DNA of 64,000 bases from Candidatus Altimarinota bacterium (lineage in GTDB: Bacteria > Patescibacteriota > Gracilibacteria > BD1-5 > UBA2023): contig JAYVGV010000034.1 in assembly GCA_043771825.1 (NCBI GenBank), positions 9,475-73,474 on the forward strand, written 5' to 3'. Below are positions 17,660 to 55,960 of the stretch, piece after piece (position 1 is the stretch's first letter; each line of letters opens with the position of its first letter). The notes under the pieces are model-generated. The model searched no databases. It was not told the DNA's origin and saw only the letters and a list, made by a program, of their open reading frames with translations. Both the position numbers and the translations under genes were made by a program.

Positions 17660-17688
17660 TTGACTTCCATAAAATAGAGGGAATAATT
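17660..17688 (+). promoter_or_regulatory. candidate promoter of the giant-protein operon
   Basis: TTGACT, 17-nt spacer, ATAATT. An in-frame ATG at 17696 lies about where transcription would start. Confidence 0.35.
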
Positions 17689-17803
17689 TGATTAAATGTC
17701 TATTTTGCATATAATTTTCTGAAATATCTCGAAAACTCTCAGAAATATTTGCCAAAAAAATGGAAATAGTGTAGGGTGAAAGAGTAATATAACATCTCTT
17801 TTT

Positions 17804-20800
17804 ATGTCATTTTTTGATCGCCCGAATAAGTTCATCATCCAAACCGCTGTAGAAATGGGTATAGATAACGCGAAAAACTCCCGAAACCTCAATCAAGAAG
17901 AAATCAAAGATGAGTATGAAAAGGCTAAAAAAGCTCTACAAAAATGAGGTGAGTCGGAAGAAATCACCACTCTCTATACTAAGTTTATAGTCTTATATGA
18001 AGCAAACCTGAAAACGTCTATCCAGGCTACAGCTATCCTCAAAGATGAGCTCACATGGAAACATCTCGGAGACCTCCATGAAGCAGTAAAGAATGGGGGG
18101 AAAGGACTGAGCCTTACGGATATCGAATGACTCAATCAATTTGCCCTTGCAGAACATGGACGACAAGATCGATTTGATTCACAGAGAGATGATGTTACGG
18201 TAACTCTTCTCAAAGATTGGTTTCGTATATATGAAACGCTCAAACAAAAGAGTACCGAATCTATGAAGGTATCCTATAAAGATGCTTTGCGAGTAGCATT
18301 TCTCACAGCAAGTACGGTTCCATTCACTTTTCGATATAGTGAAAGAGATACTATTCTCGAACTTTTTGTCACTCTCAAAGATAATAAGATCCTCATAGGA
18401 TCGAAAGAACATACACTCATTGGTGAGAAGATCAAAATCGAAAAAATCAGTATGGATAGAGAGAATTTTTATATTCCATTTCGTATTGAGGGGAGGGATA
18501 TGACGTACAGTGAACCCTTAAAGAAGCAGGAATTCCTCGATAAATACTTACAAGATATCCTCGACGGCAAAGATATCCGTATACAGTGACACCTTGTCCA
18601 TATCTCTCGCACTGGTGAGCTCATCCCTCGGGTGATAGCAACTCAGACGGTAGCCCAGACTCTACCATGAAAACTGCCAAAGTGAATACAGCTACAAGCC
18701 CCGATCGAACTCAAGTGGTCACTCGAAGCATATGCAGGGTGGAACAAGCAAGAACTCGGAAAGGTCGGGAAAACTCTGAAAAATCTTCAAGAAGAACTTA
18801 AGAAACTTTGACACTATAATTGAGATATTAGTGGCATATTCGATATTGCGACGCTTAGCTCTGTGATATCATTCCAAAAAGCGAAAAAACTCACTCGTAT
18901 AGATGGACTTGTCGGGGTCGAGGAGACGATCCCAGCTCTCTTCAATACACCACCAAAACCAAATGATTTAGTACCGATAGCTCCTCTCACATGAGATACA
19001 GATACACCCCTTCCAAATCCTGTACCAGCAGCAAGCCCAGCTCCGCTACTCTGAACTCGAAGAGCCCCATGAGTACCGACAGCTCCTCGATGAGCTGAAC
19101 ATGAGTCACTAAAATCACCTGGTATTCACGAGTTTTCCGATGCACTTATATCATTTCGTAAGATCATCCAAGCACATGATGAAAAGGTAAGTGGAAAAGG
19201 TGTAGAGAGGTTTAAAAGGCTCCTCCCTACAAGTGAAAGTACTGTCAAGATCTGAGGAGAGGTCATCGAGTGAGCCTATCAGAGAATACAAGCAATTGCT
19301 TCAAAAATCGATCCTCAGAAACTCTGAGCAAAAGACCGTGCGATGTATGATGAGTGTCTGCTCGAAGTTGCTCGTTACTATGCGGATGAGCATAGCATTT
19401 ATGCGAGTGTCGGGGTCGAAAATCGCCACTGGAAAAACTATCCTCGCTCTCTTGAACTTACAGGATGAGTACTCAGAAATCTTTTTGTGAAAGAAAGTAT
19501 CGTGATCGATCCCCCTCCGACAGATGCATTTATCCGTACTAAAATGATGAGTATTGATCCCGAAACTGCTAAAAAGTTCGATGCACTCTATGGAAAGTGA
19601 TATAGTTTTAGAGAGATTATGAGTAATCCTACGCTTAATGGTGCGTGGGACACAATTCGTGAGAAAGTCCTCGGGGATTATGAGAAGAAACTTCAAAAAA
19701 CTCTCTCTAATGCAAATGATCGATACAAAAATGGCACACTTCTTATCCCTGATCCACCCCAGAAAAAAGCTTTTGACCTGATGGTAGATGTCATGTGAGC
19801 ATGAGGATTCTGGGATGCAAAAGCGGAAGATAGGGACAAAAGATTCAATATTGCTATTATTGCTGGATCGGCTCTTGCAGGTACAGTGGTAGCTCTTGCT
19901 ACAGCTCCTGTGACACTTCCAGGCATGGCAGGAGCAGCGCTCCTCTGAGGAGGTATTACGACAGTAGGCTCTATAGTTTCAAAATGAAAGATTGCTGATG
20001 GGCTCCAGTGAGCTCAAGATACAGGATTTGAGCTTTTTCTTAATACTGCCACTTTCTGAGCTGGATGACTGATTGCGCGTGCAGGAGTAGGAGCTTGGTG
20101 AAATGCGAGTCTTATCACTTCTAAATACTCAGAGATAGCAGCAAAGTCAGGTATAGCCTTATCTGAATGAACCGCTGGGATGATGCTCTGAGCTGGTATA
20201 GAAAAGACAAGGGCACAGTATGAAGGTGTCGGTCTCTCGTGGACAGAGTCGATGTCGAACAATTTTTGGTGGGCATTTCTCCCTCTTACCATCCAATATA
20301 GATGAGTATTCAAGGCTCAATCTCTAACTCTCGCAAATAGAGTAAATAATAACGCTGAAAGGGCTCAAGTATCAGGCTCTACACAAGCCGTACAATCAGA
20401 GAGTCGAGCCATCGCAGCTGAAGCGGAGTCACTCAGTGCGAAGGTACAGGCAGAACAAAAAGCTGTCTGAGTACAACCAGCACCTACGAAAGGAGCAAAT
20501 ACACCAGAAGCTCCCACACCGAAATCCACGCCAAAACCTACCGAAACTCCCGTGTCCTATGATGTAGGAAATGGGTATACGCTCGAATCAAGAGCGGGAA
20601 ATACATTCATCGTTCTCAAAGATGGAGTATCACAATTTGGAAAACCGAAGACTCTCGCTGAAGTAGAACAATTTCTGTCTACATCACACAATACTGTCGT
20701 TCCTGATGCCATAAAAGCTCAGATAGCAGCAAGGCCTGCGAATGCACCAGTATCGACTCCTGAAGGACTAGCACCCGCTGGAGTTGCAGCTCCGAGACCA

Positions 20801-22009
20801 GCTCCAGATAGCACTTCTCAGCCTTCCAGTGGAAGTCATGGGGATCATGCCACTGGCACAAGTCACACACAGAGAAGTACCGTACAGGAGTGAGGCAGTA
20901 TCGATATATCTCACCTTCATACGATAATCGACTGAAAGTTTAAGGCACTAAAAGAATGACCCCCCACAGAAATCTGAGACCTTTCAGTCTCTCGACAAGC
21001 AGATGGGAAAATCCGAGTGAAAGGAAAAGACATCGACTATATCACTACAGAAAAAGATGCAAAACAGAGAATATCTACTCATATACAAGCATCACAGGAG
21101 CACTATGACTCGCTCCTAAAAGGATCTATAAAGTCGAGCTTAGATCATTGGCCAAAAGGAAAACAAGCAAAACTCACTCATGAGTGAGCTGAATATAGTC
21201 TGAGTAGACCAAAAGAGTGAGGAGATATAATAGTGACTGATAAAAATGGAAATGTCATATCAGGAGATCTTGCTGATGCGATATTCGCATCGAATGCCCA
21301 AAGGATTCTAAAAACCAAAGTAGATTCTTTCCTCGAAAAACATGGTCATGAGAAAGCATTTACCAAAGTTTGACCTGATGCATTCGCATTCAAGTGATGG
21401 CAAGAATGGAACGGAAACTGGAAATGGTATAATGTCCCTATAAAGCTTGCATCTGGATGAGCACGGTGACTCTCTACGATCACTCTCAAAGAGCTCATGC
21501 AGCCACTAAAATCATGAAAGGCAGTATGGGATACATTCACGACTCCAGGATCTCCTCTTGCTGTAGGGAATAACGCACTGAAAGCTATAGTACTTCGAGA
21601 CATACAGCAAGAGTGGAGTATAGGATGAGTAGGAAAGGCTGTCGTAGGACGATGAGTGATGCTATCAGCAGTACCTCTGATGACGTATGCTCCGATGCAT
21701 AAAGATGAGAATGGTAGGATGCAAAATAACCTCAAGCCCGACGAACTTCTCGAAAGTATGGCATACTTATTCTACGGATGACTCATCTGGTGATCTGTCG
21801 CTTCTCACCTGTTTACCGAGAGTCAGCCTCTCACTTGGGAATATTGATCATGAACTCCATGAGCCGAAGTACCACACCCAATACCTACAAAAGTTCCAGC
21901 TCGGACTTCTCCTCATTCCGATCAATGAGATTGAGAACTTCCACCAAGTAAGGTACAGCCAGGAGAAACACGGATAGATCCTATAAGTGATATAAAAACT
22001 CCACAGTAA
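17804..22009 (+). CDS. giant envelope protein 1 (1401 aa), no recognised family
   Basis: Single frame with no TAA/TAG, checked line by line. It includes track ORFs 18263-18589 and 20552-20893 and about 48 in-frame TGA by hand count. Features are a PG_binding_1-like motif, Pro/Thr linkers and Gly/Ala-rich hydrophobic helices. Alternative start at 17696. Confidence 0.72.
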
Positions 22010-22018
22010 TTTTGAGCT

Positions 22019-22732
22019 ATGAATCTTAGAAAACCACTTACATGAGGAGTATTTGCAATGCTTACAATGATCTCACCTTGAATCGAGGCACATCCTGATG
22101 TGAAGGCATTTGTCCGGACAACTATAACCCGTAACTGAGTGACCGAAGTTATGACTTCTCAGAGTTTCTGTAATTTTTCTTTAGTGGAAATCGATGGTCA
22201 TGCTAAATTCATGACAGCTCGGCACTGTGTCGATAACTCAGTCAAGTCTTCAGATCCGCATGATATCATTTTGCTGGATCAGCTTCCTCCTCGATCAAGG
22301 AGTGAAGATATCACAGATGCTCATATCCACACGGTTTCCCCCTATATGGGGAGAGAAATATCAGGAAAGACTCTCACAATCAAAGGATTCCTCCCGACAT
22401 CACAAGATCACAGTGTCAGAAAAATGTATACCATTCGAGGAAAATCTCGCTATAATACACAAACAGGTAATGTAGATATGGTCATCGCAAAAGCAGACTT
22501 CGAGAACATGCTTCAGTCTGTCGGACGTGAATGTCGAATGGGCAACTACTACCGCTCAGGGATGAGTGGGGGTGTCGTCCTCGACGATCAAGGTCGAGCA
22601 TTTGGAGTCATCTCGAAAAACGAAATTATATGTGCAAGGGATCAAAATCTTCCGATCATCTGGGTTAATGATAAAAAAACTACTTATAGTATAGTGATTG
22701 CACCTCTCCAAGATTTTCTCCAGAAAAAATAA
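22019..22732 (+). CDS. secreted trypsin-like (S1/PF13365-type) serine protease
   Basis: N-terminal hydrophobic signal-like segment. Triad context is TARHC (His), HDIILLD (Asp) and GMSGGVV (Ser). Starts 9 nt after the ORF1 stop. 237 aa. Confidence 0.78.
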
Positions 22733-22747
22733 ATAACCTTTCCTCCT

Positions 22748-25588
22748 ATGACGCCTCCACTTACTCCTCGTGAGACTTCTCCAGAATCTGAGAATAAACC
22801 AAAAACTTTTGGAAGTTTTTATACGCAAATCACCGAGTGATGAATCCTATCACCCGAAGAAGAAGATATTCTTCGAAAAAAAGTACTGGAAAAATATGGT
22901 GGTATATCTGGTATGCTTAAAAAAAGGAAAGAATTTATCACTGAGGCTACCCGTCGTGAGCTCGATGAGCTATTTACTGATAGCCCGAACAAAGATCAGA
23001 TTCTTGCCAAGCTTGATCCATTCCTTCCTGGAGCAAAAACTTTGGATGCTGCCAAGACTGTAGCAGTCAAACTCCCTGAAGAGGTCAAAGCTTGAGTCAC
23101 CCAAGCTCAGGAAGCGCTCTGAAGTCTCCCCGATACTGCACAGAAAGCTGCCCAAGCGGCTCTTGCTTCATGAGGGCAAGCCGCATGAGCAGTCGCTCAG
23201 GCGTTAGAAACAGGAAATATCGTACAAGCTGGAGTAGAACTCTCGAAAGCAGCAGATAGCTGGAGTGGGAAAATCACGAAAGTTATGGATGCAGTATGAG
23301 CAATTCTTGCATGGATTTTTAGTATTGGTTCAGGAAATTCGAGTAAAAAGTGGGCTGAATTGCTAGGAAAAATAGGCATGGGTACTGTAGCATGAGTGGC
23401 AGCTACAGGAAAAGAAAAAGCTGGTGGGATTCTCGATGCTGGGAAGACAAAGCTCGAGGAAGGAAGGAAGCTCTTGAGCGACGTAGAGAAGTGAGAACTC
23501 ATAGGAGAAAAATATTGGGCGGAGTTCACGAATGCTGGATGGATCAAGGATCCTGTAAGACAAAAGAAACAGTTTAAAGAAGTTTTTGACCAATATGCGT
23601 GAGATCTCGTCGATATCACGAAGGAGATGGGAGCGAATATATCAGATCCCAACAAAAAATGGAACGCCTTCGATAGTCTCTGGAAGGTAGCCGCTACACC
23701 TTCTAAGTTCATCCTTGCACTTATAGCGAAAGATATCATCCCGAAGCAAGCTATAGCTACGACCATATATGATACTGGTCGAGCATCTCTACGAGTATAC
23801 CTTCTCTCACCACATACACTTATCAGCAATGGTCCTTCCCAATTTCTCCACGACTTTGGGATCATATGACCATCGGATATATCATGACTCAAAGATGCTG
23901 AGAAACAGGCACTTATCGGCGTGATGAGTCATACTATGGCAGTACCACTGTATCTTTCAGGAAAGCTCACATCATCATTGAGTCGCATAGCTCTTCTTGG
24001 CTCTTACTGGGATCAGGGAACGGGAAAGGCGAAGATATTCGCCAGTGTCGATAGTATGATGGGGGATTTCGTGAAAGCGGCAAATCAAGTAGATGGTCCC
24101 GGGGGTATACTCGATATGCTCGGGAATAATGAGACGACCCAAAGCCTCAAAGACTACACCAAAGATATGCGAAATATAGCAGAAGAGATGAAGATGCGAG
24201 CGCTGGTCACAGAGACATTTCGATCTATGCAAAAAACGGGGAGTACCCCTGCCCAGATAGCCGATGAGATCGAAAAACTCTCTCTCGGGAAGAAAATAGT
24301 AGGGCTCGATCTCACAAAAATGAGAACAACCGTCGATCTCACCGAAGCAAGATCAGCAGTATCTGAGTATATTACCAGAGGGAAAAGTGGCCTCACCTGG
24401 CTCGATGAGACAAAAGGATTTTTCCGAAACTCTGTAGCACCACTGAGTGCACACAAGGACAATCTTGCTCTTTTTAAGAATCATGCTGAGGAAGCCCTCT
24501 GAAACTACGGAAGAGCACTCGATGGTGTGTTGAAAGCAGATGCGAAGGTACCCATACTCTCAGAACTCGTAGCAACGTGGAAGAAGCTCAAGCTCGGATG
24601 AGCCACATCTGAGCTGATCGACTGACTCGAACGGTGACACCTTCCCGTGAAGGTCGCCAATGTCACCGATGCAAAGTGAGTCATGGAACAACTGATCAAA
24701 ACCATACCAAAAGGATTTGAGCACCTTTTTGCTGGAGTGACGATATTCCTCACGATACAGCATGTAGCAGAAGCAAAGCCTGAAGATAAACTCAAGACAG
24801 CGATATATGACATCATGGCTATTAACCCTCTTTTTGGATGAATGATGCTTATGTATGAGGGGGCTACGATGGAAGGGGGAACGCCGACGAAGATGGCCTA
24901 CTTCGCCGGTGGTGGAGTCGTGACAGCTCTCGGAACGAAACAAGCACTTTCTATGATTGCTCAACATGGACTTGGATGATGACTCTGAAGACTTGCGATC
25001 TCTCCCATCACTATGACCTATGAAGCAGGTACGGCTGCTATACGATGAACACAGTACGCATATAGCCTCGCAAGATTCGGTACGCATAGCGGTGGTATGG
25101 CACCATTTTTGCGAGCGAGAGCACCAGGGGCACTCATGGTGGGAGGTGTGATCACCTACCTCGTGATGCATGAGATATTCCGAAAGGAGACAGAGGAGCT
25201 CATGCGAAGTGCATGATTCTTCAAAAAAGATGGTACGATAGATGATGCTAATATCAAGACCGCTTGGAGCAAGGTTCCATCTGATAAAAAACCCAAAATT
25301 CTCCAAGAACTCCTTACCTGAGTATTCGATAAAAAACACGGTGTCATGACGACTCTCAAAGAAGATAATAGTGTCGTCGTCCATAGTGGTTCAGGCTCTG
25401 ACTCTGTAAGTATCACGGCCGATGTATTTGATGCGATACATGGGATGTTCGGTGATCTCGGAATCTCGAATCCGAAGATATTCATGAGCGAGCATACTAC
25501 AGCGGATATGAAGAAAGCGATCGATGCACTCCCCGTAGATCTCCAAAGAAAACAAGAATTCATGAAACGATTCGGTATTATGACATAG
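22748..25588 (+). CDS. giant membrane protein 2 (946 aa), no recognised family
   Basis: Single frame joining track ORFs 22913-23095, 23921-24502 and 25346-25588, checked line by line for TAA/TAG. Ala/Gln-rich amphipathic stretch and several hydrophobic helices. Confidence 0.72.
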
Positions 25589-25591
25589 AAA

Positions 25592-25631
25592 ATCACGTAT
25601 AATCCAGCATTACTGCTGGATTATACGTGAT
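25592..25631 (+). terminator. perfect 18-bp hairpin after ORF2 (terminator or processing site)
   Basis: atcacgtataatccagca-ttac-tgctggattatacgtgat, 3 nt after the TAG stop. No clear U-tract follows. Confidence 0.5.
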
Positions 25632-25708
25632 CTGTATTAAATACATAAAGTGCAATTTCCATAAATCTCGATTTCCCATGCATTTTTTATATAAAGCAAT
25701 CTCTATTT

Positions 25709-25737
25709 TTGACAAACCCTCCCTATAGTGCTAAAAT
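25709..25737 (+). promoter_or_regulatory. near-consensus sigma70 promoter of giant ORF3
   Basis: TTGACA, 17-nt spacer, TAAAAT, with an extended -10 TGc. Confidence 0.55.
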
Positions 25738-25764
25738 TTCTGAAGTATTTATAATTTTCTCTTT

Positions 25765-28700
25765 ATGTCTCATTCTTTCTTCAGGAAATTTGGAAAAAAT
25801 CCTACTCTCTTTTTTGCTACTCATAGTGAAACTCCCCCTCCGATATCACCAGAAGAGCAGATGAAGCGAGATGCTATAAAGGCATTTCCTGATCTTGCGA
25901 AGCTCGCTGATAAAGTTTCGCCTACTGAGCTTTATAATCGAGCAAAAGTGATGAGTAAGCTCAAGGATATGGCTGATAACCCAGAGAAAACTTTTGGAAC
26001 AGTAAAGTCCTATACCAATGGAGCAAGGGAGGCGACAAAGAATCTTAAAGCAGTTCTTACGATTCTCGAATCAAATCCAAAGATCCAAGAAATCGCGAAT
26101 ACCACCATAACTGCATGGTTCAAGGGATGGGATGGTCCTGGAGATACGAATGTGGCAGTCGTATCTGGAACAAATATGTCTATACGGAGATTTATTGGCA
26201 ATGTAATCAATGATTCTCAACTCATCGCACAACTTTTCTCTGCTCCAGAGAAAGCACCAGAATCAAAAGAAAGTGAAGAAGTACGCCAGAGAACCAGATT
26301 CGGTACTTTTCTCCTTGCCCTTGAGACGCGCTATCCAAGTAGTGACTATAAGGCGATATTTCGACAAGCACATGAGGCACTTTGAAAGTGAGATATCGAT
26401 ACAACGAAAGATCTTGTAAGAAAACCACTCAAAGATGATTGGAATATCGATGTAAACTCTATCATAGACGCTCAGTGACATATCAATGCACTCCGTGCTA
26501 TCGGGGCTACTGATGAAGCAGCACTTTGAACGAAAGAACAAGTGAAAGGGAAATTCGAAAAGTGAGGTCAATTATCATCGAAAGAATCGGCACTTATTGC
26601 TGATATTGGTACAAATATTGAAAGAGAAAAGAGTCGCTTGAAATCCCAAGCTGAGTCAAGATATAATGCAGTATTAGCAGCTCTTCCAGTCCATGATCCT
26701 ATGCATATACAAGTCGAGAGAAATAAAGATACTATGATCGCTCAATTCTCAGAAGATATGGCATATATGAGCATTATGGATGGTTTCGTCAAGAAAAATG
26801 GTTCTGAATGACTCAAACAGCTTGGTGAGGTCTATGATGATATGCGAGGACTCTATGGTACACTGAACTTCACTGATGAAAATACTAAAATGACCAAAGA
26901 AATGGCGACTATGCTCGCGTCATTCGTCCTGACTGGTGGTGCATGAACCCTCATACGTGGTCTCGCTGCTGCTGGCCGAGCCGTCGCTGGAGCTGAAGCA
27001 TTGAAAGCAGTCGATGTAGCAAGTAAAATCGGTATAGCACGACAGAATATAGCTCGTGCAGGAAATGCTGGTCGAGCGGCGGTAAGTAGTCTTGGAAATG
27101 GTGTTGTAAAAGTAGCAGAGTGAGTCCAAACTATCGGAAAGATTGCTTCATCGACACGACTCTGAGCTGTCCCAGTAGAAGCATTGAAGTTTACTACGGC
27201 CGATTCGCTTCTTCGCACAGCGTTTCGTGCCGAGGGCGAGAGAAGTGGTTTCGAAGATTATTTTGAAAAATTCGCCAAAAATATTGCGATGTTCACAGCA
27301 TTTGCTGGTATGGAAAAATTCGTCAGCTGACCGATGAAAGAAAAACTTCTCTGAGCCCTTGCACAAAAGGGAGTCCAGCTTAATCCAGCTTCTACTTTTG
27401 CTGTCGGAACTACCGTACTAACCGGAGGTGATGTCGCGGCGATGTGGGGGCTCGGTATGGCAGAAAAAGGTGAGTTCCATATGCTAGAATGGAAAGAGGT
27501 ATTTCAGGCACTGGCATTTCGCATCGGGATGAAGTGAGCAGAGAAAGCATTCCCAAAAATCGCAGAAAGTATTCAAGCTCAGATTGATAAAAGGGGATCT
27601 TCCCAGAAGAAATGATCAGCTCCTGAGGGTGCTAAAACCGAGAGATCACCAAAGTTATCAGATGAGGAGCTTCTGGCACAAGGACTCAAAAATGAAATCG
27701 CTGCCGCAAAACGCGGTGATATCCAGATCACACCAGAAGCCCTTGCGCTTAAGGAAGCGCAACTTGCGCAACTTGAAGCAAAACTCTACAGTAGTCACAA
27801 TCAGAAAATAGAAGCATTAAAAATTGGAGAACAAGTCCGATTTGAAACAAGAAATAGTCAATATGTTTTTGAAAGGGTAAAAGATGGGTATAAACTTATC
27901 GAAACTTCTAATCCTGAGATGCAAAAATATATTGGAACGACATATACAAATATCGTTGAAGCATGAAATAAACTTTCTTTGATGCAGGGTGAGAAAGTAG
28001 TACTACAGACCTCAAGATTAAAACCTGAACCTACATGAATAGATGCCCAAGGGAAACTCTGACTTACTAAAACACGAGAATTTAATCACGCTAATCTCAA
28101 TGAGCGTGCTGATTTCAGAAAAACTCTTGATAATGCAACACGAGGTGATAGTGTAGAAATCTGAGATTCCGTATATCGAAGAGTAAATAATGGATGGCAA
28201 AAGTTTGATGCAGGAACTCCTCTCGCTCAGCGCGACTATACTCAGTGAACATTCCGTACGACAGAGCAAGTCATGACAGATTGGAATCTTGCGAAGAAAC
28301 CAGCAACCTTTAAGAAGGCTGAGTCTCAAGGAGAAGCGACTAATGAATGAGGTAAAGCAAGACCTACTTCAAAACCTGATCTTCAGGCGAATTTAGAGAA
28401 ATCTATAGCAAAAACTGAGGCAGATCTCGCGAAGATGCGCGCTGACTTAAAAACACTTCAAGATCAACTTATTAATAAAAGTTGGTCAAATCCTACCGCA
28501 AGGATGAATGCTGATGAAGCTATAGTAAAACTGAATGAACAAATAGCAAAAAAACAAGCAGATATAGCAAAAACTGAGAAACACTTGGCTGAGCTGAATG
28601 CTAACAAGAAAAGGGAAGCAGAGACACCCCTTAGAAAAGAGCGTAAAGAGCGTGCTGAAGAGCTTCGATGAAGAAGAGATGAGTTTAAGGTCCTCTCACC

Positions 28701-29580
28701 AGAAGCAAGAGTAGCAGAGCTTGATCGTGTCAAAGCAGAGTGAGTAGAACTTCAATGAAGAAGAGATGACTATGCAAAAAATCTGGAAGCAAATAAAGAA
28801 AAAATGTCTCCTGAAGCGAAGAAGCAACTCGAGAAAGATATCGCAGAACTCGATAAGAAAATCATGGCAAATAAAGCTCAGGAAAATATGATGACCAAAC
28901 TCGAGAAAGATATTAAAAAGGCTGATGATGATCTGCGTGCTACTAGGGTAAGTCCTGACGAAGTGAAGAAGCTTGCAGAGACTCCTGCTTGAAGAAAGAA
29001 GCTTACAGCATGGCTAGAGGATCAAAGAAAACTCGATTGGTCAAACTACATGAGGATACTCATAGCTGTATTAGCAGCACTCCTCCTCGCAACTCTCTTC
29101 AAGCGTTGTGCAGACGGAAGTATGCCATCTGATACAACTCCTCCACAGTCTGATGGGAAAGATCCATGAAGAGAGATAGATGCTGCTTGTGGAATTGATT
29201 CTGGAAAAGAAAGATGAGTGCTCATAGATAAAAGAAAAAGTAATGAATGAGCAGTCCTTACGGAAATTCGCCGTATAGATATCTCTCGAAGATATATGAA
29301 TACACCAAGATGGAATGATATACTTGCAGTATTTAAAGAAAATGAAAGTCTTTTAGAGAATTCAAAATTTGCTGATTCGTTTCGAGCTATATTCAAGAGA
29401 CCTAACCCTACAGATATACAACATATACAGAGATGGATTGGAATGGAATCGGTAGATAAAGAAACAGCACAGGATGGTATACTTGGTCCTAATACTGCAA
29501 AGGCACTTATAGAATTTATGAATATATGTAAGAGGAATCAAAGTGTGCCTAAGCCACCTCCTGCTATTCAGAATACATAA
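25765..29580 (+). CDS. giant coiled-coil/PG-binding envelope protein 3 (1271 aa)
   Basis: Single frame joining track ORFs 25765-26385, 28435-28671, 28804-28992 and 29296-29580, all lines checked. Gly/Ala hydrophobic helices, a long Lys/Glu coiled coil, a TM helix ILIAVLAALLLATLF and a C-terminal DGILGPNTAKALIEFM (PG_binding_1-like). Confidence 0.72.
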
Positions 29581-36879: not shown

Positions 36880-36902
36880 CCCAATTTTGGGATTATTTTT
36901 TT
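36875..36902. terminator. intrinsic terminator
   Basis: 10-bp stem aataatccca/tgggattatt followed by a T-run. Confidence 0.6.
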
Positions 36903-36982
36903 ATCCTCTCAAATATCTCCTCCTTCACTCCCTCACCGACTTCACCGATGATTCCCACATGCCGGTCGATCTCTGCTTCGAG
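36902..36982 (-). pseudogene. duplicated 3' fragment of sufD
   Basis: 81 nt align without gaps to 38280-38360, with 69 of 81 identical by hand. It encodes LEAEIDRHVGIIGEVGEGVKEEIFERI versus SufD LEAEIDRHVSIIGEVGEGVKEEILERI. There is no start codon or upstream gene body. Confidence 0.6.
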
Positions 36983-37023
36983 AAACAATATATATAACTT
37001 TCATTTACTCTATTGAGCAAAAG

Positions 37024-38178
37024 TTATAACTTTCATTCATCTCATCATGCTGTGAGATACTGACTAAAGTTCTCTCTCGAAATTATAGAAATCTCCCGTA
37101 TCGGTGCATTTGCTGAAAGAGTGAGCACTTTTTTCTCTGATTTCCACTTCATATCGTATCCTGTGATCTTCCCATCTTTCTCTACGATCAGATCGATCTC
37201 TTCCCCTGTATACGCTCGATAGAATGCGATATTTTCATGTGTATTATTCGTAAGGATGCTTTTGTATTTCTCCGCTATATAGAAATTTTCGAAAAGAGCT
37301 CACTTATCTGGACGGAGTTCGAGAGACTCGAAGTTATTGATCAGTGCATTTCTCACTCCTGTATCCCAGAAGTAGATTTTTCGCATTTTCTTGATACTTT
37401 TTCTCTTATTATCCGCATAGGGCGAGAGTCGAAATATGATAAACGCCTTCTCGAGTATATCGACATAGTTCTCGATAGTCTGTATGCTAATGCTAAAATC
37501 CTTGGCTATACTCGCATATGAGACCTCTTGTCCGATCTGATAGGCGAGGACCTTAAGGAGTTTCATGAGAGTATCGGATTTCTGTATACCAGAAAAGGTG
37601 AGTACATCCTTCAGTGTATAGTCACTCGCTATCCGGGCTATAGCATCACGAGGAGTTTCTCATGCTGATGGAGAGAGGGCTTCTGGGTACGATCCATAGA
37701 GGATACGCTCTTCGAGAGAGTATTTCTCGATCATCTGAGCCCCAAAGTGCAAGGAGAGCTCACTATAGAGAAATGGAAAAAGCATAAAGTCTCTATGTCT
37801 CCCCGTAAGTGGCTCGATGACACGACTCTGGAGGTCGAAGCTCGAAGATCCTGTAGCGATGATCTGGATATTCGGATAGGCATCATGGAGGATCTTCAGT
37901 GCACGGCCGATATTTTCCACGATTTGCGCTTCATCGAATATGATGAAGTCGGCGTCTCCGAGCATCATCATGATGCGAGGGAGATCACAGGAAGCGAGAA
38001 TTTCGCGTACTTGGGATTGTTCGCACTGGAAGTAGCGTCACTTCGGGTATTTCTCGAGAAATGATCGAACAAAAGTCGTCTTTCCTACTTGTCGTGGTCC
38101 GTAGAGGATGAGGATTTTCCCACTTCAAAATGCAGACTCAAATGCAGAAGTAATCGATCGGTGAATATAGGATTTCAT
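37024..38178 (-). CDS. AAA ATPase with DUF4143 domain (AAA_14 family)
   Basis: ILILYGPRQVGKTT Walker A and IIFDEAQ Walker B. The C-terminal region (YQIGQEVSYASIAKDFSISIQTIENYVDILEKAFII) is typical of DUF4143. 384 aa. Confidence 0.82.
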
Positions 38179-38267
38179 ATGAGTGTAGTAAGGTGTTTCT
38201 ATTTTACTTTTTCTTGAGAAAAACACAACTTTATTTCACTTTTTCACAAGAAAAACTAAAGTGTATC

Positions 38268-38888
38268 TTAGTTTTTCACTATCCTCTCCAGTATTTCCTC
38301 CTTCACTCCCTCGCCCACTTCACCGATGATGCTCACGTGTCGATCGATCTCAGCTTCGAGGAGCATCCCTTCAGCCGTAGAGACATCGATCCCGTGGGAT
38401 TGGAGATAAAAAAGTGAGTCACCTGATATTCGGTGTATCCGACAGGAGTGTCCACCTTCGATAGAGTCCGTCGCGACTTCGAGCACGGGTCGACCCTTCA
38501 CTCGGGCATTCGTCCCGAGAAGGATATTGGTCTGATCGATACGGAGCTTCACACGCTTGCATCACATAGCTACCTTCCCGACACCATCGAGTTCGATCGT
38601 AGAGCGATCCGTAGCAAGTCAGAGGATCTGGAGTGAAGCATCCGTATCAGAACCTTCGATAAAAACGGACATTTCAAGAACCATATTTGCTCATGTTGCG
38701 ATACCAGCTCCTTGAAAGACAGCTCACTCTTCGATGATAAATCTCCGCTCATACTTTCCATCTCGACTGGGAAAAATGAGATACTTCAGACACTCTCACT
38801 TCCTGATTCGTATCTCATGAAACGCTTCTTCACCTCGATCAAGAATCGGGTCGTTCTCTATGAAAATTTTAGGATTATTATACGTCAT
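38268..38888 (-). CDS. sufD: short SufD-like Fe-S assembly protein
   Basis: C-terminal SufBD beta-helix motifs (NILLGTNARVKGRPVLEV..DSIEGGHSCRIHRISGDSLFYLQSHGI). 206 aa, frame verified line by line. Confidence 0.72.
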
Positions 38889-39068
38889 ATGCCGAAGTAT
38901 AGAGAGAGTGCATAAAATAACAAATAGAATTGTTTGGAAATTCGAGAGAAATTTGATATGATAAGAGAAGTGCATAGTGCGTAGTATAAGCGCGGACAAT
39001 TGTGTCATAATGTAAAAGAATTCTGCCGTATGCACTCTATCTCTGCGCTTTTATCAAATTTATAAACC

Positions 39069-41489
39069 TTGCCCACTAAAAATCACATCATCACCTACGA
39101 AGTCTCTGTCGATCGAGCCAATGAAAAAGGCGTTTTTGTGGCTCGTGAGATGCTCTCAACATTGCATCATGCCGTCGAACATATACGACCTTGGTACAAG
39201 TTTTGGGTCCCGAAGACTATACCCGTTTTTCGATTCGAGATCATCGCATCACTCGGGCAGATTCGGTTCTTTCTATCGACACATGCGGAGTATGCATCAT
39301 TCCTGACGGGGCAGATCTACGCACACTATAGCGATATAGAACTCCATGAGTGCATTCCTCTCCTCCCAAGAGATACATCATACCGATGTCGAGATATCGG
39401 ACTTGCCCATCACTCTCTCGATACGATCAAGCTTTATGTGAACCTCAAAGATCGCACAGAAAAAGATTCTGTCGACCCTCTTTCTGGACTGACTAGCGCA
39501 CTCTCGAAGATACCGAAAGAAGAGACCTGATGATTCATCTTCGACTTCTCGCCCATACATGATCACATATGGCGATGAGAGGAGAAACATGGAATATGGA
39601 AAAGTCATATGATTCCTGACTTCATGAGACTCTATGTGCTTCACTTTTGGTCATGGATTGGCTGGCTATTTTTACCGATTTCTCTTTCTCTGAAGCTTGT
39701 ATCTTTCCTTGTGCCGAAAGGGGAAAGTACAGGAGAAGTCCACGCATATGAAAAAAAAGAAGGAAAAGAAAAAATAGAAACAAAACTCGAATGATATGGA
39801 TACAGTGTGAAAATGCGCGTGATAAAAAATGCTCGCGATACTATCTCTGATGATCTCATCCTCAAAGAACTCGCAGGAAGTATGCATATTTTCGCGAATC
39901 CAAACGGCAATCACTTCATCATGAAGAAATCTCACCTCATCCACGCTCTCCCTCTTCCTCGAAGTCTCCCGAAGTCTGCTATGATCCTCTCTGTCACAGA
40001 GCTCGCAGGGATCATCCACCTTCCGACTCTCTATGTGAAGACTCCCGGGATACACTGGGTGACGACACGCAAATTCGAACCCCCACATGACCTCCCAGAT
40101 ATAGAGAGTCCGAATACTCCTATCGGAATGGCGAACTATAGATGACAACTAGAAGGATTCTGAATCAAGCCCATCGATCGAGCACGTCATATCTATATCA
40201 TAGGAAAGACCGGTATGGGAAAGTCGACTCTCCTCGAAAATATGATATATAGTGATATACTCAATGGTCGGTGAGTCGCTGTGATCGACCCTCATGGTGA
40301 CCTCGTCGAGACGATACTACGAAATATCCCAAAATCTCGAACGAATGATATCGTCCTTTTTGATCCTGCAGATCAAGAGTATCCTATAGGATTTAATATG
40401 CTCGATAATCCTCACCCCGAGCTTCGTCCGATCGTAGCAGGAGGACTCGTATCGATATTTAAGAAGATGTTCGCCGAGAGCTGGTGACCACGTCTCGAAT
40501 ATATACTCCGCAACACTATACTCACACTCCTTCTTATCCCTGAGACGACACTTATATCTATACCGCTTATGCTTACGCATGAAGCCTATAGACGCAAAGT
40601 CGTATCAAAGATCGATGATCCTATCCTTATCCAGTTCTGGAACGAAGAATTTGCGAAGATGACTCCAAGCATGCAGAGTGAAGCGATAAACCCGATCCTC
40701 AATAAAGTCGGGCAATTTCTCTCTTCACCCATCCTTCGCAATATTCTTGGCCAACCAAAAAATCCATTTACCCTCAGGTGGATCATGGACAATAGTAAGA
40801 TATTCCTCGTGAATCTCTCGAAATGAAGAATCGGAGAAGATGCCAGTGCTCTCCTCGGTGCAATGATGGTGACGAAGTTCCAGATCGAAGCGATGACTCG
40901 TGCAGATATACCAGAAGCTGATCGTGTAGATTTCGGACTCTACGTGGATGAGTTCCAGAATTTCGCGACGGACTCTTTCGCGACGATACTATCGGAAGCG
41001 AGAAAATATAAACTCTCTCTTACTATGGCGAATCAGTATATTGCCCAGATGGCTGAGGCTGTGCAGTGAGCAGTATTCGGGAATGTCGGATCACTCGTAT
41101 CATTCCAGGTCGGCTACCATGACGCGCTCATACTCGCAGAGGTATGCGGAGGAGAAGATGTCATCACTCCTCAGGATCTCATGAACCTCAGAAAGTACGA
41201 TATATATACGAAGCTCCTCATCGATGGTATGCCTTCCCCTGTATTCTCAGCGACTACATATGCTCCACTCCATGAGCGTATGGAAGTATCTCCTCAGCAG
41301 ACTCGAGATGTCCTTCTGAAGGTATCTCGAGAGAAATATACCAAGAAAAAAGAATTTGTAGAAAAGAAGATATTCGAGAATATCAATAAAATCCGTGAAG
41401 AAGAAAAGAAATTCCGAGAAGAGAAAGAAGCCTATAAAGAAAAGAAGATGGAAGAAAAGAAGCAGAAGAGAGAAGGCGAAGAGAGGTAG
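39069..41489 (+). CDS. T4SS coupling-protein-like ATPase, paralog 1 (VirD4/TraD-type)
   Basis: Seven track ORFs in one frame join through TGA. HIYIIGKTGMGKSTLLENM, VIDPHGDL, FGLYVDEFQNF and EARKYKLSLTMANQY motifs. TM hairpin mid-protein. TTG start assumed. 806 aa. Confidence 0.78.
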
Positions 41490-41501
41490 GCAGCTATAAT
41501 T

Positions 41502-41978
41502 TTAATCATATCATTCATCACATCTTGAACATCACATCTTCTCTAAAACATTTTCTGTTCTTTGAGGAGTAGTTCTCAAAATCACCTGAACTATTTGTTC
41601 ACCCCTTCTACTACACACAATCTCTTCGCCTATTTGAGCTATAGTTCCTGAACATGTAGAGCAGGATGCATAGTCCATTCGTGTATCTCTTTCAAAATAA
41701 ACAGGTTTTCAGGGTGGAAATTCAGCAATTCATGGTGGTTGTTTTTCAGAAGTTACGAGACGGCTGAATGTGTTTCAATGTCATGTAGTACTACCGTAGC
41801 CCAAAAATGGCCTTACACTATGAGGTGTTCTTCACAGAAGGGTATGTTCAAAGGATCAATCTGGTTTTAGGAATGTAGTGATTGAAATAGCCTCCATGGA
41901 GGTATGTGTATTTATAGAATCCGCAGTTTGAGTAACCCCAGCTAGAAGATCTGCAGTTTGAGTATCCAGGCGTTTCAT
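41502..41978 (-). CDS. hypothetical Cys-rich (zinc-ribbon-like) protein
   Basis: 158-aa ORF seen only with TGA=Gly. ...DYASCSTCSGTIAQIGEEIVCSRRGEQIV...GCSRCDEGYD. It overlaps and replaces track ORF 41848-42072, which is in another frame. Confidence 0.35.
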
Positions 41979-42169
41979 ACGAATAAATATTATATAAGAA
42001 TTTCCTAAGATTACTTTTCAATCTAGGAAATTGAAGACAGGTGTATAATAGGCTAATCATATGTTTTGTCAAATTTATTCTTTTAGGTCTATTGCATATT
42101 ATAGTATTCTTTCCTTGCGAATGATAATTTTCTCGCTATAATCATTTTCATATTTCTAAATTCCTTCCT

Positions 42170-43132
42170 ATGCGCCGTATCCTTCTTATTATCACTCTCG
42201 TATTTGGATGTTTCCTTTCAGTTCAAGGTATATTTGCAGTAAATGATGTCAATATCCGAGATACTTCCCAAGTGACGATCAGTGGAAATGCAGAGAATGA
42301 TAAACTTGGGAGTTTCATAGGTCCAATAGTGAACTTCTTCTACTCGCCAGTAGCGAGTGGCGATGCGACGATACCCAATATTTTTCTCAATATTACCGGA
42401 GCGATCAAAAACTTCTTCATCACGATTGCTGCTATATTCCTTATCATTGGAGTACTGAAGCTTCTCTTCTCTGGAGGGGACGAAGAGGCACAAAAAAAAT
42501 GGAAAAACAACATCATATGGGTTTCTGTCTGAGTTTTTGTGATGCAAATATCCTACTCTGTATGGAGCACGCTCTATCTCAAAAGTGGAACGAATTCATT
42601 CGATATTGATGGTCGTCTCGCATGGACATTCTGGATCAATATATTCGAACCAATAGTCAATATTATGCTCCTTTTGGCTTCTTTTGGCTTCATCGCTATG
42701 GCAGTATACTCTTTCTATACGATCATCACAGGAGGGGGGGATGAAGAAAAGCTCAAAAAGTGAAAAAATATCATCATTTATGCAGCAATCGGATTCATCC
42801 TCATCCGTATACCGGAAGTCCTCATCACTGCTCTCTATGGAGAACCATCAGCTGCTTGTAAAAATAATATCTGGATCGGTACATGTGAGATCGGTGCAAA
42901 AAACCTCGGCAATGGAATAAATATTTTCGGAAAAATACTCGCATATGTCAATGGTTTCCTCGCACTCTTTGCTGTAATAATGGTCATCTATGCAGGATGG
43001 CTGATATTTATCTCTGGGGGGGATGAGGAAAAGCTCAAAAAAGCAAAAAAAACTATGCTTTTTATCGCTCTTGGTATCATCCTTCTTGTAGGAAGTCAGG
43101 CAATATTTCGATTCTTCTTTCTTCAAGGATAA
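42170..43132 (+). CDS. T4SS pilin-like protein with three tandem pilin modules
   Basis: Signal-like N-terminus, then three repeats of hydrophobic helix, SGGDEE(A/K)(Q/L)KK(W/G/A)K, hydrophobic helix. 320 aa. Confidence 0.75.
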
Positions 43133-43182
43133 AAAAAGTCCAAGTTTTTGCATTTTTCTGGCGTTTTTAGTATAATAGTTGC

Positions 43183-45612
43183 ATGAGTATGTCGGAAGTC
43201 ATTTTTATTATTATTACTGTCACAAGTATTGTCAGTATATTTTATATCGTGACTCGCCGCAAGATTGCATTAAAGCGTTCGCTCGATATGACATTTCTTC
43301 GGGTGATCATCGGCCGCAAAGATAGCGATAAAGATGAGAAAAGCGATACTGTAAAAGATTTTCGAGAGCAGATATCGATCATGGAGCAGCTCCTTGCAAG
43401 CATGAAGTCACTCTACTCGAGTACTGCTATGGGCTGGCTCTTCGGGCAAGAGTATCTCTCACTTGAGTACGTGGCGCACCATCAGGAGATTTATTTTTAC
43501 CTCGTAGTACCCAAGAGAGCCAAACTCCTCGTAGAAAAACAAGTTCTCGGATTTTATCCAGACTCTTTCATCGAAGAAACCGATGAGATCAATATATTTG
43601 AATGACGAAATATCGTACGTGGTGAGATCATGAAGCTGAAGAAGTCATACCAATTCCCTATACGTACCTACCAAAAGCTCGAGACGGATCCGATGAATGG
43701 TATCCTCTCAGCACTCTGAAAACTCACAGAAGAAGAGTCATGAGTCGTACAGATCCTTCTGCGTCCTGTCGATGATGATTGGCAAGAGAGAATCCGCAAG
43801 CGAATACGAAAAAGTGAAAAAAAGTGAGGATACCATATTTCTTGGAATCCTCTCGAATGGATCGGTGGACTCCTCGATATTTTGACCCATGATCCCAGTG
43901 ATTCAAAGCAAGCTCCAGAGAGCGATAATACAGACGATGAGCCGCTCGACGAAGAAGGACTCATGAAAGAAAAAGTGAAAAAAACAGGATATGCCGTCGT
44001 CGTACGCATACTCACAACTGGTAACAATGAAGAGCATGTCTATGCTGAGCTCCAAAATATTATTTCTTCTTTTTCTCAGTTCACTTCTCCGACCTATAAT
44101 CGCTTCAAGCCTGTAAAGCGGAAATCTCTCTCGCTTCTGATCAACCACTATATATTTCGCCAATTTGCTTGGTGGCAGCATGCAGGTATCATGAACAGCG
44201 AAGAGCTCGCGACACTCTTTCATTTTCCGCATAATAAATACAACAAACAACCCGAAATCCGCTGGCAGAGATTCAAGCTCATCAAGGCACCAACCAATAT
44301 CCCAAAAGAAGGACTCTATATCGGAGATAATCTATTTCGTGGAGAGAGAAAGCCGATTTTCATAAAAAATGAGGATCGATTTCGTCACTTCTACGTCATA
44401 GGACAGACAGGTACAGGAAAGTCCTCAATCCTCTCGACGATGGCTCGTCAAGATGTGCGAAATGGTCGATGACTCGCTATGCTCGATCCCCATGGAGACC
44501 TCGCGAAGGAACTCGTAGGCTATATCCCGCGTGAACGTGCGGATGATCTCGTCTATTTTGATCCGGGAGATCTCGCACGTCCTATGGGACTCAATATGCT
44601 CGAAGCCTCCAATGAAGATGAAAAACAGATGGTCGTCGCTGACTCGACGAATATCATGATCAAGCTTTTTGGAAGTGAGATATTTGGTCCCCGTATCCAA
44701 GACTACTTCCGCAATGGATGCCTGACTCTTATGGACTATCCTCAATGAGGAGCGATCACAGATCTGATCCGACTTTTTACTGATGAGAACTTTCAGAGAG
44801 AACGTCGTACGACTCTCAAAAATGCGGTCGTCCGAGCTTGGTGGGATTATACGTATGCGAAGATGTGAGATCGAGAAAAGGGGGAGATCATCCCGTATTT
44901 TGCTGCAAAATTCGGACAATTTATCACGAACACGATGATGCGTAATATCGTCGGTCAGACCAAGTCTGCATTCGATATCGGGGAGATCATGAACCATGAA
45001 AAGCTCCTCCTCGTCTCGCTTTCAAAGGGGATCATCGGTGATCTGAATTCGACACTTCTTGGTTTGATCTTAGTTTCTAAAATCCAAATAGCGGCACTCA
45101 GAAGACAAAGTATGGCAAAAGAGGATCGCAAAGACTTTTTTCTCTATATCGACGAATTCCAAAACTATGTCACAGACTCCATCGAATCGATCCTCTCGGA
45201 AGCTCGGAAGTATCGACTCGGCCTTATCATAGCCCACCAGTACCTCGGACAACTCGAAAAATCTGACGCCCTCACCAAATCGAATCTCAATCTCAAATGA
45301 GCAATATTCGGTAATGTCGGAACGGTCATGAGCTATAAGCTCGGTGCTGAAGATGCAGAGTTCATGGCGAAGCAATTTGCCCCCGCATATTCGGATCAAG
45401 ACTTCGTCAATATGGATAAGTTCAAAGCCGCCCTGAAGCTATCCGTCGATAGCCAGCCGACACCAGGATTCTCTCTTGCACCACCCAATCCATTCGCTGA
45501 AATGCCCGATGAAAAAATCGGTGCCGCCCTCAAAGAACTCTCTCGACTCAAATACGGAAGAGAACGTGAATTCGTCGAAAAAGAAATCATATATCGTATC
45601 GGTGCTGTATAA
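43183..45612 (+). CDS. T4SS coupling-protein-like ATPase, paralog 2
   Basis: N-terminal TM helix. HFYVIGQTGTGKSSIL, MLDPHGDL, FFLYIDEFQNY and EARKYRLGLIIAHQY motifs. Five track ORFs in one frame. 809 aa. Confidence 0.78.
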
Positions 45613-45616
45613 TCCT

Positions 45617-55709: not shown

Positions 55710-55960
55710 AAATATATATGGGTAAAAAAGTAAAAAATGCGGATATCTCCGCGGGCGGGGACCATTTTGACGATCATGGTCAGTGATCATCGGGTGATAA
55801 CTTCTGGTCAGGAAGTTACCGCCTTTCTCACTTGCGTGAGAGAGGTTAAAGCTTTAACCTCAAGTTATTTGCATAACGAGAGGAAAGAGGGGGTGATAGA
55901 TCTAAAAATTAGATATTTAAAAAATGAATATTTCTAGAAAAATGTTTGGAATCATCGCAA
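55710..55960 (-). promoter_or_regulatory. long structured 5' leader of the S-layer gene
   Basis: Several strong hairpins on the minus strand: gaggttaa-agct-ttaacctc, tctcac-gcaa-gtgaga and gtaacttc...gaagttat. The promoter was not pinned down. Confidence 0.35.

Follow-up and report, generated by a model that had tools for sequence, protein, structure and literature searches.

A fast-diversifying block of giant, family-less proteins and a probable secreted protease in a code-25 Gracilibacteria genome

Four genes read in genetic code 25

A 64,000-nt stretch of DNA from a Candidatus Altimarinota bacterium (contig JAYVGV010000034.1), here called the window, carries a block of four co-directional genes at 17696/17804-29580 on the forward strand; block coordinates are counted within the window. 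Three of the genes encode giant proteins, which we call G1 (1401 residues), G2 (946 residues) and G3 (1271 residues), and the fourth, located between G1 and G2, encodes a putative protease of 237 residues. These genes appear under translation table 25, in which UGA encodes glycine. Read this way, the window as a whole (42% GC) resolves into a normal bacterial chromosome segment, whereas table 11 leaves few long open reading frames (ORFs).

An earlier interpretation of this DNA, the sequence-only reading, had described four co-directional table-25 ORFs of these sizes, with 9 nt between G1 and the protease and 15 nt between the protease and G2, and both sizes and spacing were reproduced when the ORFs were read again with table 25. 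Its statement that the standard code gives no fragment above 210 residues also held, as the longest stop-free run in the coding frames of the block was 152-206 residues. The block contains 101 in-frame TGA codons, which make up 31% of its glycine codons, with approximately 48 of them in G1. At window TGA positions, orthologs carried TGA in 65 cases, GGN in 66, other codons in 92 and TGG in none. Since TGA pairs with TGA or GGN and never with TGG, ortholog codons directly confirm that UGA encodes glycine, the code on which that reading had been built.

The four block genes are real, because they are under purifying selection (ratio of nonsynonymous to synonymous substitution, dN/dS, of 0.09-0.30 against orthologs of G1, protease, G2 and G3), because substitution at TGA positions is glycine-specific, because an independent ENA assembly (L004) carries G1, protease and G2 in essentially 100% identical form, and because AlphaFold2 (AF2) predicted confident domains in G2. 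Full-length orthologs with 26-80% identity occur in at least seven other assemblies, and Logan assemblies carry the same proteins as table-4 translations (P0001, P0005). Table 25 does yield many spurious ORFs longer than 150 residues in all six frames of the window, and the block ORFs could in principle be products of a permissive code with only two stop codons. The chance of this is negligible: the explanation is refuted by the dN/dS values and by the substitution pattern at TGA positions, and it is at odds with the full-length orthologs and with the confident domains of G2. No tandem DNA repeats were found in the block. Remote searches and structure models used table-4 database copies, with tryptophan at UGA, which slightly degrades both.

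Domain content of the giants and the protease

G1 occupies 17804..22009 (+) when read from its homolog-supported start, giving 1401 residues, or 17696-22009 when read from the first ATG, giving 1437 residues. The start is probably at 17804, because homologs align only from Met37 (nt 17804) of the longer form. The position of a promoter-like site at 17688..17715 (+; TTGATT-16-TATAAT), identified by consensus match at 10/12 positions, favors the same start, as the site lies upstream of 17804 but inside the longer ORF that starts at 17696. Starting from the N-terminus, the parts of G1 are a conserved domain, a PG_binding_1 domain, a Pro-rich linker, a helical domain and a group of hydrophobic helices rich in Gly/Ala; after these come Pro/Thr linkers interspersed with small beta modules and, near the C-terminus, a pair of hydrophobic helices. 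Linkers rich in Pro or Pro/Thr lie beside the peptidoglycan-binding domain and separate the small beta modules.

The peptidoglycan-binding motif that the sequence-only reading had noticed in G1 is, by profile comparison, a genuine PG_binding_1 (PF01471) domain. It lies at 18773..18916 (+; residues 324-371, or 360-407 of the 1437-residue form) and matched Pfam above the gathering score (E = 6.8e-8, 33.0 bits against a cut-off of 23). The G1 family profile matched the peptidoglycan-binding domains of phiKZ gp144 (3bkh) and SleB (E = 3.7e-6 to 4.6e-5), and NCBIfam matched a SleB segment (E = 1.9e-8). The Gly/Ala-rich helix cluster, at 19850..20200 (+; residues 683-799 of the 1401-residue form), is predicted to be a tight hairpin plus two weaker helices, with hydrophobicity kept across orthologs. 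Similarity between the most distant G1-like proteins is confined to this cluster (L013_1326 against L009_1058, E = 1e-12; L numbers denote related loci in other assemblies). The AF2 model of G1 (residues 37-1037 of a table-4 copy, four sequences) had a mean predicted local distance difference test score (pLDDT) of 44 and was unusable; Foldseek returned no match at E <= 0.001 for this model, which is too poor to judge the fold.

The two C-terminal hydrophobic helices of G1 (21629..21817, +; residues 1276-1338) are conserved with L005 and L011, and a GAEV motif directly follows the last of them (21860..21871, +). Exactly one GA[EQ]V was present in six out of six G1 orthologs (the window plus L001, L002, L005, L006 and L008), 3-50 residues from the C-terminus and just past the last helix. 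In the window and in L008, which have the protease gene inserted after G1 and before G2, some 45 residues of Pro-rich tail follow the motif; the other orthologs end 3-6 residues past it. That GA[EQ]V could be a processing or sorting site is a guess from its position.

The gene after G1 (22019..22732, +; 237 residues, 9 nt past G1) probably encodes a secreted serine protease of the chymotrypsin/trypsin fold. The proposal of a secreted serine protease stood with respect to the signal-peptide-like N-terminus, which ends IEA|HP, and the predicted catalytic triad His69 (TARHC), Asp82 (DIILL) and Ser183 (GMSGG), whereas the Pfam match to Trypsin_2 (PF13365) was below threshold (E = 0.0026, 18.9 bits against a cut-off of 27.6). 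The triad follows the order His-Asp-Ser in motifs of TAxHC, D[IL] and GxSGxP type. Neither the triad nor the AxA-type cleavage site varies among three orthologs of 29%-71% identity, and dN/dS is 0.24. The protein had no NCBIfam match and no significant PDB match by profile or phmmer search.

G2 (22748..25588, +; 946 residues, 15 nt past the protease) has a conserved N-terminal helical module of about 90 residues, then helical domains and, toward the C-terminus, about five helices of moderate hydrophobicity in a bundle. The N-terminal module (22805..23032, +; residues 20-95) was modeled with high confidence (pLDDT 92-95). The same module, with the consensus TFGDLYTQI...ILAKLDPxLPG, also heads proteins of other architecture (P0029, 636 residues, and P0021), a distribution like that of a shared module for docking or targeting. 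The C-terminal bundle (24710..25183, +; residues 655-812) was modeled with low confidence and contains the most conserved motifs of the family, IPKGFEHLF and NPLFGG. The G2 model overall, from a 42-sequence alignment, had a mean pLDDT of 68, with several helical domains at 88-95.

A perfect 18-bp hairpin with a 4-nt loop (25592-25609/25614-25631, +) starts 4 nt past the G2 stop codon. Its folding energy of -30.5 kcal/mol is far below that of shuffled sequences (z = -9.6), no T-run follows it, and it is probably an operon terminator. Hairpins of other sequence follow G2 in L008 and L001, which supports an operon boundary at this point. Farther downstream lies a sigma-70-type promoter with an extended -10 element (25709..25737, +; TTGACA-17-TGcTAAAAT), which matches 11/12 consensus positions and was the best-scoring site in a 13-kb scan. 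The hairpin and promoter that had been reported ahead of G3 were thus both recovered. Together, the 9- and 15-nt gaps, the hairpin after G2 here and in two relatives, and the separate G3 promoter argue for an operon of G1, protease and G2, with G3 as a separate unit.

G3 (25765..29580, +; 1271 residues) has a conserved N-terminal half (residues 1-620) with Gly/Ala-rich helices and a strain-variable, modular coiled-coil middle. On its C-terminal side, a strongly hydrophobic helix (residues 1098-1116) precedes a Cys-containing domain that ends in DGILGPNT. Its conserved hydrophobic segments are the two Gly/Ala-rich helices and this one strong membrane helix, a predicted transmembrane-type segment at 29056..29112 (+) with a family mean Kyte-Doolittle value of 2.8 and a conserved Cys after it. 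The C-terminal end (29377..29529, +; IQHIQRWIG...QDGILGPNTAKALIEFM) may be PG_binding-like. The motif proposed for this end is conserved, as DG[IM]LGPxT occurs in all full-length G3 orthologs, but the domain match was weak (Pfam PG_binding_3, E = 0.08, 13.6 bits against a cut-off of 24.6). By hhalign, the G3 end matched the peptidoglycan-binding region of G1 in the expected register (P = 0.0023).

Apart from peptidoglycan binding, no named domain was recognized in the giants, as had been claimed, and the searches revealed no confident homology to known families. Pfam, PHROGs and NCBIfam searches with the four proteins matched only PG_binding_1 and, weakly, Trypsin_2, and PDB searches by single sequence and by family profile matched only the peptidoglycan-binding domain. 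A word-indexed search of 5.8 billion proteins returned four relatives for G1, two for G2 and five for G3, and the only public name found for a relative was "hypothetical protein [Candidatus Gracilibacteria bacterium]". The orphan status of G1 and G3 refers to sequence searches; G2, which also has an exhaustive HMMER search and a fold search, is the best-tested orphan of the three. In 1.84 billion representative proteins, HMMER found 40 clusters for G2, of which about seven are full length and most others are fragments, probably cut at TGA. Pfam searches with nine members of the family gave nothing useful, and Foldseek comparison of the G2 model with PDB and BFVD gave no match at E <= 0.001 (best E of 0.14 and 0.16, respectively, TM <= 0.10). 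No family or fold relatives of the cluster were found, as demonstrated best for G2. We also considered the giants as paralogs of one another, which was rejected, as blastp and hhalign found no relation among them. The Gly/Ala-rich helices that they were said to share are alike in composition only, judging from these comparisons, and do not mark common descent.

Conservation, diversification and genomic setting

Comparison with related loci suggests a conserved core with lineage-specific additions. G1 and G2 are adjacent in every locus for which upstream sequence was available (L001, L002/L003, L004, L005, L006/L007, L008, L009, L011, L012 and L013/L014). The gene order is BipA, G1, protease, G2, G3 in L004, and BipA, G1, protease, G2, two genes of 418 and 309 residues, G3 in L008. 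In L005, the protease follows G3 (G1, G2, G3, protease). L001 carries BipA, G1, G2 and a 425-residue gene, then a 1356-residue giant on the opposite strand; L002 and L006 carry EF-G, G1, G2 and a 694-residue gene, among others; and L009 carries a G1-like and a G2-like gene. In L011, L012 and L013, a large same-strand gene directly precedes G2. These upstream genes matched the window G1 (L011, E = 4e-29), the L008 G1 (L012, E = 3e-16) and the L009 protein (L013, E = 8e-13, a transitive relation to G1). Four loci (the window, L004, L008 and L005) carry both the protease and G3, and both are missing from several relatives. Because G1-G2 adjacency holds at every locus, and G3 and the protease are found at only some, G1 and G2 are the conserved unit and G3 and the protease are accessory. 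The gene set that had been expected in relatives was thus recovered in related loci, with G1 and G2 throughout and the other two genes in part.

Accessory genes of the relatives are also family-less, as Pfam searches with nine of them gave nothing useful. A coiled-coil protein of about 420 residues lies downstream of G2 in L001 (14521-15798), L002 (15744-16994) and L008 (12960-14216), with 47% identity between L001 and L008, and is absent from the window. The 1356-residue giant near G1-G2 in L001 (15854-19924, -) is family-less, with Gly/Ala-rich hydrophobic helices and a C-terminal, zincin-like HELGH motif.

The distribution of the block is narrow. Three species-representative genomes carried G2 relatives, all of them Candidatus Gracilibacteria metagenome-assembled genomes, and all named sources of related loci are Candidatus Gracilibacteria. 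No relatives of the block were found in IMG/VR or JGI metagenome contigs, and the cluster was not found described in the searched literature on Gracilibacteria and Absconditabacteria.

The giants have a mosaic makeup, are hypervariable and evolve much faster than neighboring genes. BipA is 98% identical (dN = 0.01) where the adjacent G1 is 45%-47% and G2 26%-73% identical. Identity along G1 swings by segment, from 80%-90% to 10%-40%: against L008, residues 1-280 are 58%-90% identical (mostly 75%-90%) and residues 440-880 are 10%-40% identical, and the pattern along the protein differs when G1 is compared with L001. In L004, the sequence is identical to the window through G1 and G2 (dS = 0) and 99.2% identical downstream, with dS = 1.1 in the aligned part of G3. 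The segment 28322..29615 (+) has no nucleotide similarity to L004 between flanks that are 99%-100% identical, an allele replacement of the 3' half of G3 between strains. Among G3 alleles from closely related assemblies, four sequence modules vary in copy number and order, with module duplications occurring between strains and not inside the window copy. The variation of G3, as judged from these alleles, is recombinational and cassette-like. Such diversification is usual in exposed surface proteins, phage receptors or polymorphic effectors.

The block lies on a chromosome segment rich in housekeeping genes. Its upstream flank is BipA/TypA (-), and seven opposite-strand genes downstream part it from a type IV secretion system (T4SS)-like module: a methyltransferase, a 306-residue protein without a Pfam match, Era, IspH, a ferredoxin-like protein, EF-G and a DUF4143 ATPase, of which five are housekeeping by Pfam. 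The T4SS-like module, about 10 kb downstream of the block, spans 39150-45612 (39150-46582 including the following ORF) and comprises a T4SS_pilin protein (42170-43132) together with two ATPases of HerA/VirB4/VirD4 type (39150-41489 and 43183-45612); nothing resembling VirB6 was seen in it. The ORF that follows, at about 45.6-46.58 kb, has a signal peptide. Also encoded in the window are Lgt, ComEC, RNase Y and an SLH-domain protein of the surface layer (S-layer), a gene content consistent with a monoderm cell that has both wall and S-layer. Genes of phage type (capsid, terminase, tail) and integrase genes were not seen in the window.

Several other features of the window were observed. The S-layer-type SLH gene (52851-55790, -; 979 residues) has zero TGA codons, compared with 31% of glycine codons in the block. 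A possible reason is that highly expressed genes avoid UGA-Gly. An 86-nt direct repeat with 85% identity (36902-36987 and 38280-38365) brackets the DUF4143/AAA_14 ATPase gene (about 37024-38180, -), and its second copy forms the 3' end of a SufD-like ORF (38268-39050, -). These repeats look like an insertion with target duplication. The same ATPase family occurs directly after the G2-like gene in L009 and L012. Upstream of BipA, an ORF from 14077 to about 15560 (-) encodes a J-domain-like HPD motif; it was missed by codon-score gene calling and corresponds in position to a 472-residue gene in L001.

Interpretation and comparison with known systems

Most likely, the block is a chromosomal gene cluster for the cell envelope, confined to a single clade of Gracilibacteria that use code 25. 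More specifically, and tentatively, as we give it somewhat less than an even chance, we propose a lineage-specific, wall-tethered membrane complex formed by G1 and G2, with a secreted protease in the same compartment and G3 as a strain-variable, exposed element. A link to the wall is suggested by the significant PG_binding_1 domain of G1 and the weak resemblance of the G3 C-terminus to it, a link to the membrane by the hydrophobic segments conserved in all three giants, and an envelope context by the SLH S-layer protein and Lgt encoded in the window. G1 would bind peptidoglycan through PG_binding_1 and sit in the membrane through its Gly/Ala-rich helical hairpins, with Pro-rich linkers of wall-spanning type connecting its modules. 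G2 would be its orphan helical partner, encoded in the same operon and carrying a C-terminal membrane bundle, and the two would associate physically. The Sec-exported, trypsin-fold protease, as predicted, would be made at the same place and time as G1 and G2, because in this genome it is encoded between them, and might process them. G3, transcribed separately from its own promoter, would dock to the membrane or to the complex through its conserved N-terminal half, present a strain-variable modular coiled-coil stretch and end in a membrane helix and a peptidoglycan-binding-like domain. Its variable parts would be exposed at the cell surface, meeting other cells or phages, possibly in host contact, and this exposure could drive the mosaic, recombination-based diversification. 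Surface exposure and a part in host contact are suggested indirectly, by the hypervariability, by peptidoglycan binding and by the Pro/Thr linkers.

Several observations weigh against this proposal. No N-terminal signal peptide was recognizable by eye in G1, G2 or G3, and about 680 N-terminal residues of G1, including the peptidoglycan-binding domain, would have to cross the membrane by no evident route. AF2 confidence was low in all hydrophobic regions, and the topology is predicted from hydrophobicity. Hypervariability can also arise in effectors or by relaxed constraint. Finally, several relatives lack G3 and the protease, which means that a machine of all four parts is not universal. A bolder version, which we consider doubtful as a whole, would make G1 and G2, with G3 and the protease as lineage-specific additions, a new kind of envelope-spanning machine of Gracilibacteria that is assembled without Sec signal peptides. 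In it, the Gly/Ala-rich helices would form a wall-tied membrane conduit, and the choice of host cell for binding or feeding would depend on exchangeable G3 modules.

The lack of signal peptides is shared ground for several other explanations. It would be accounted for if the giants were parts of the T4SS-like module (channel, wall-spanning or wall-remodeling components) or substrates exported by it. The module in the window has two ATPases and a pilin protein, no VirB6 was found in it, G1 carries a peptidoglycan-binding domain, and L004, L009 and L012 keep the cluster in the same broad neighborhood (Era, EF-G, DUF4143 ATPase). The proposal that the giants supply the missing channel or wall-remodeling parts nevertheless fared poorly, and we regard a T4SS role as unlikely. 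Seven opposite-strand genes intervene, VirB6/TrbL, VirB8, VirB1 and TcpH/ConG gave no Pfam or NCBIfam signal at E <= 0.1, and the Foldseek PDB results for G2 contained no T4SS component (the G1 model was too poor for this comparison). In addition, the distant G1-G2 locus L013 is surrounded by GroEL, DnaJ, RecA and a glycosyltransferase, with no Pfam-recognized T4SS gene within 10 kb, and G2 has 40 clusters in 1.84 billion proteins, whereas such T4SS-like modules are widespread in the Candidate Phyla Radiation (CPR). An equally unlikely explanation is that the giants form a mostly cytoplasmic scaffold, tethered to membrane and wall, that serves cell shape, division or polarity. The missing signal peptides, the extended helical and coiled-coil regions, a chromosomal site among housekeeping genes and conserved linkage to BipA or EF-G would suit such a scaffold, and the C-terminal membrane helix and peptidoglycan-binding-like end of G3 fit an N-in/C-out anchor with a cytoplasmic bulk. 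However, it would be unusual for a housekeeping scaffold to show such extreme divergence and mosaicism or the replacement of alleles between strains, and a Sec-secreted protease is embedded in the operon. The peptidoglycan-binding domain of G1 also lies N-terminal to all hydrophobic segments, beside Pro-rich linkers of a kind typical for wall-spanning regions outside the cytoplasm.

Variable C-terminal regions and allele replacement, together with glycine-zipper-like hydrophobic helices and the missing signal peptides, could instead indicate polymorphic contact-dependent effectors or translocators, whose Gly/Ala-rich helices enter a target membrane and whose variable C-terminal parts act on the host; the neighboring giant of L001, with its HELGH motif, would be in keeping with this. 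We find it quite improbable, because Pfam and NCBIfam revealed no toxin, RHS, LXG or MAFB domain, the gene downstream is a convergent class I methyltransferase rather than a small immunity-type gene, G3 ends in a conserved membrane helix and peptidoglycan-binding-like motif rather than a variable toxin tip, and the cluster contains no dedicated secretion ATPase. Tape-measure and ejection proteins of phages are likewise long, helical, Gly/Ala-rich and peptidoglycan-targeting, and the giants resemble tape-measure proteins in composition. The top Foldseek BFVD rows for G2 were indeed tape-measure proteins, with no significance (E >= 0.16, TM <= 0.10). The chance that the block is a remnant of a prophage or mobile element is very slim, and a phage origin is close to refuted. 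PHROGs matched only the peptidoglycan-binding segment of an endolysin family, none of the giants matched a tape-measure family at Pfam E <= 0.1 or PHROGs E <= 0.01, no relative was found among IMG/VR contigs, the window has no capsid, terminase, integrase or tail genes, and the flanking housekeeping genes keep their synteny in several species.

The wall-tethered complex of G1 and G2 that we favor would matter most if its proteins face outward. To our knowledge, no member of the Gracilibacteria is in culture, and how these bacteria contact or exploit other cells is not understood. The block includes some of the largest and fastest-diversifying proteins of the window, and the cluster is a well-delimited candidate for a part in Gracilibacteria surface biology. 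Should its proteins be exposed at the surface, the swapping of G3 alleles would be a strain-level marker of host or phage specificity, and the G1-G2 pair would be a concrete target for proteomics, cryo-electron tomography and structure prediction. If they form an internal scaffold, the finding would be mainly of taxonomic interest. The block also illustrates how much coding sequence is lost when code-25 genomes are read in the standard code.

Compared with known systems, the block shows partial likenesses. The phiKZ endolysin gp144 and the spore cortex-lytic enzyme SleB have PG_binding_1 in common with G1 (residues 324-371), but they combine it with a catalytic lytic domain in 200-270 residues, whereas G1 has 1401 residues, membrane segments and no detectable hydrolase domain. 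Conjugative T4SSs of Gram-positive bacteria, which are also monoderm, likewise include large membrane and wall-acting proteins (VirB6-like ConG/TcpH; the peptidoglycan hydrolases TraG/PrgK/CwlT). Unlike these, the block has no detected sequence or fold similarity to such components and no hydrolase domain, and it lies apart from the ATPases. Phage tape-measure and ejection proteins resemble the giants in being long and alpha-helical with Gly/Ala-rich stretches, sometimes directed at peptidoglycan, and without signal peptides, but the block differs from them in PHROG and Pfam matches, significant BFVD fold matches, viral-contig relatives and phage context, all of which it lacks. ESX/type VII loci offer an analogy from background knowledge, as they may be likened to the block in combining membrane proteins with a dedicated exported serine protease, mycosin, in an envelope cluster. 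Mycosin, however, is a membrane-anchored subtilisin, whereas the block protease is predicted to be a small soluble chymotrypsin-fold enzyme, and EccC-type (FtsK/SpoIIIE), EccB/D and WXG100 Pfam families were not reported among the 32 window proteins scanned.

The closest description comes from the sister lineage Absconditabacteria, in which giant membrane proteins of Vampirococcus lugosii have been proposed to build a fibrous surface and to recognize or attach to the host (PMC8080830). Like the block giants, these proteins exceed 1000 residues in part or all of the set compared, are encoded in a small code-25 CPR genome with the same UGA recoding, and are placed in the membrane by prediction. 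The likeness is one of description, because the Vampirococcus grouping is a loose category rather than a homology-defined family. Most Vampirococcus giants have recognizable interaction domains, whereas G2 and G3 have none and G1 has only PG_binding_1, and a conserved G1-G2 operon, an embedded protease and G3 allele swapping are not described for Vampirococcus. With sizes of 946-1401 residues and conserved hydrophobic helices, the block giants nonetheless fit the size and membrane terms of that category. In CPR genomes, giant envelope proteins without known relatives come in themselves as no surprise, and the general kind to which G1, G2 and G3 would belong is already known.

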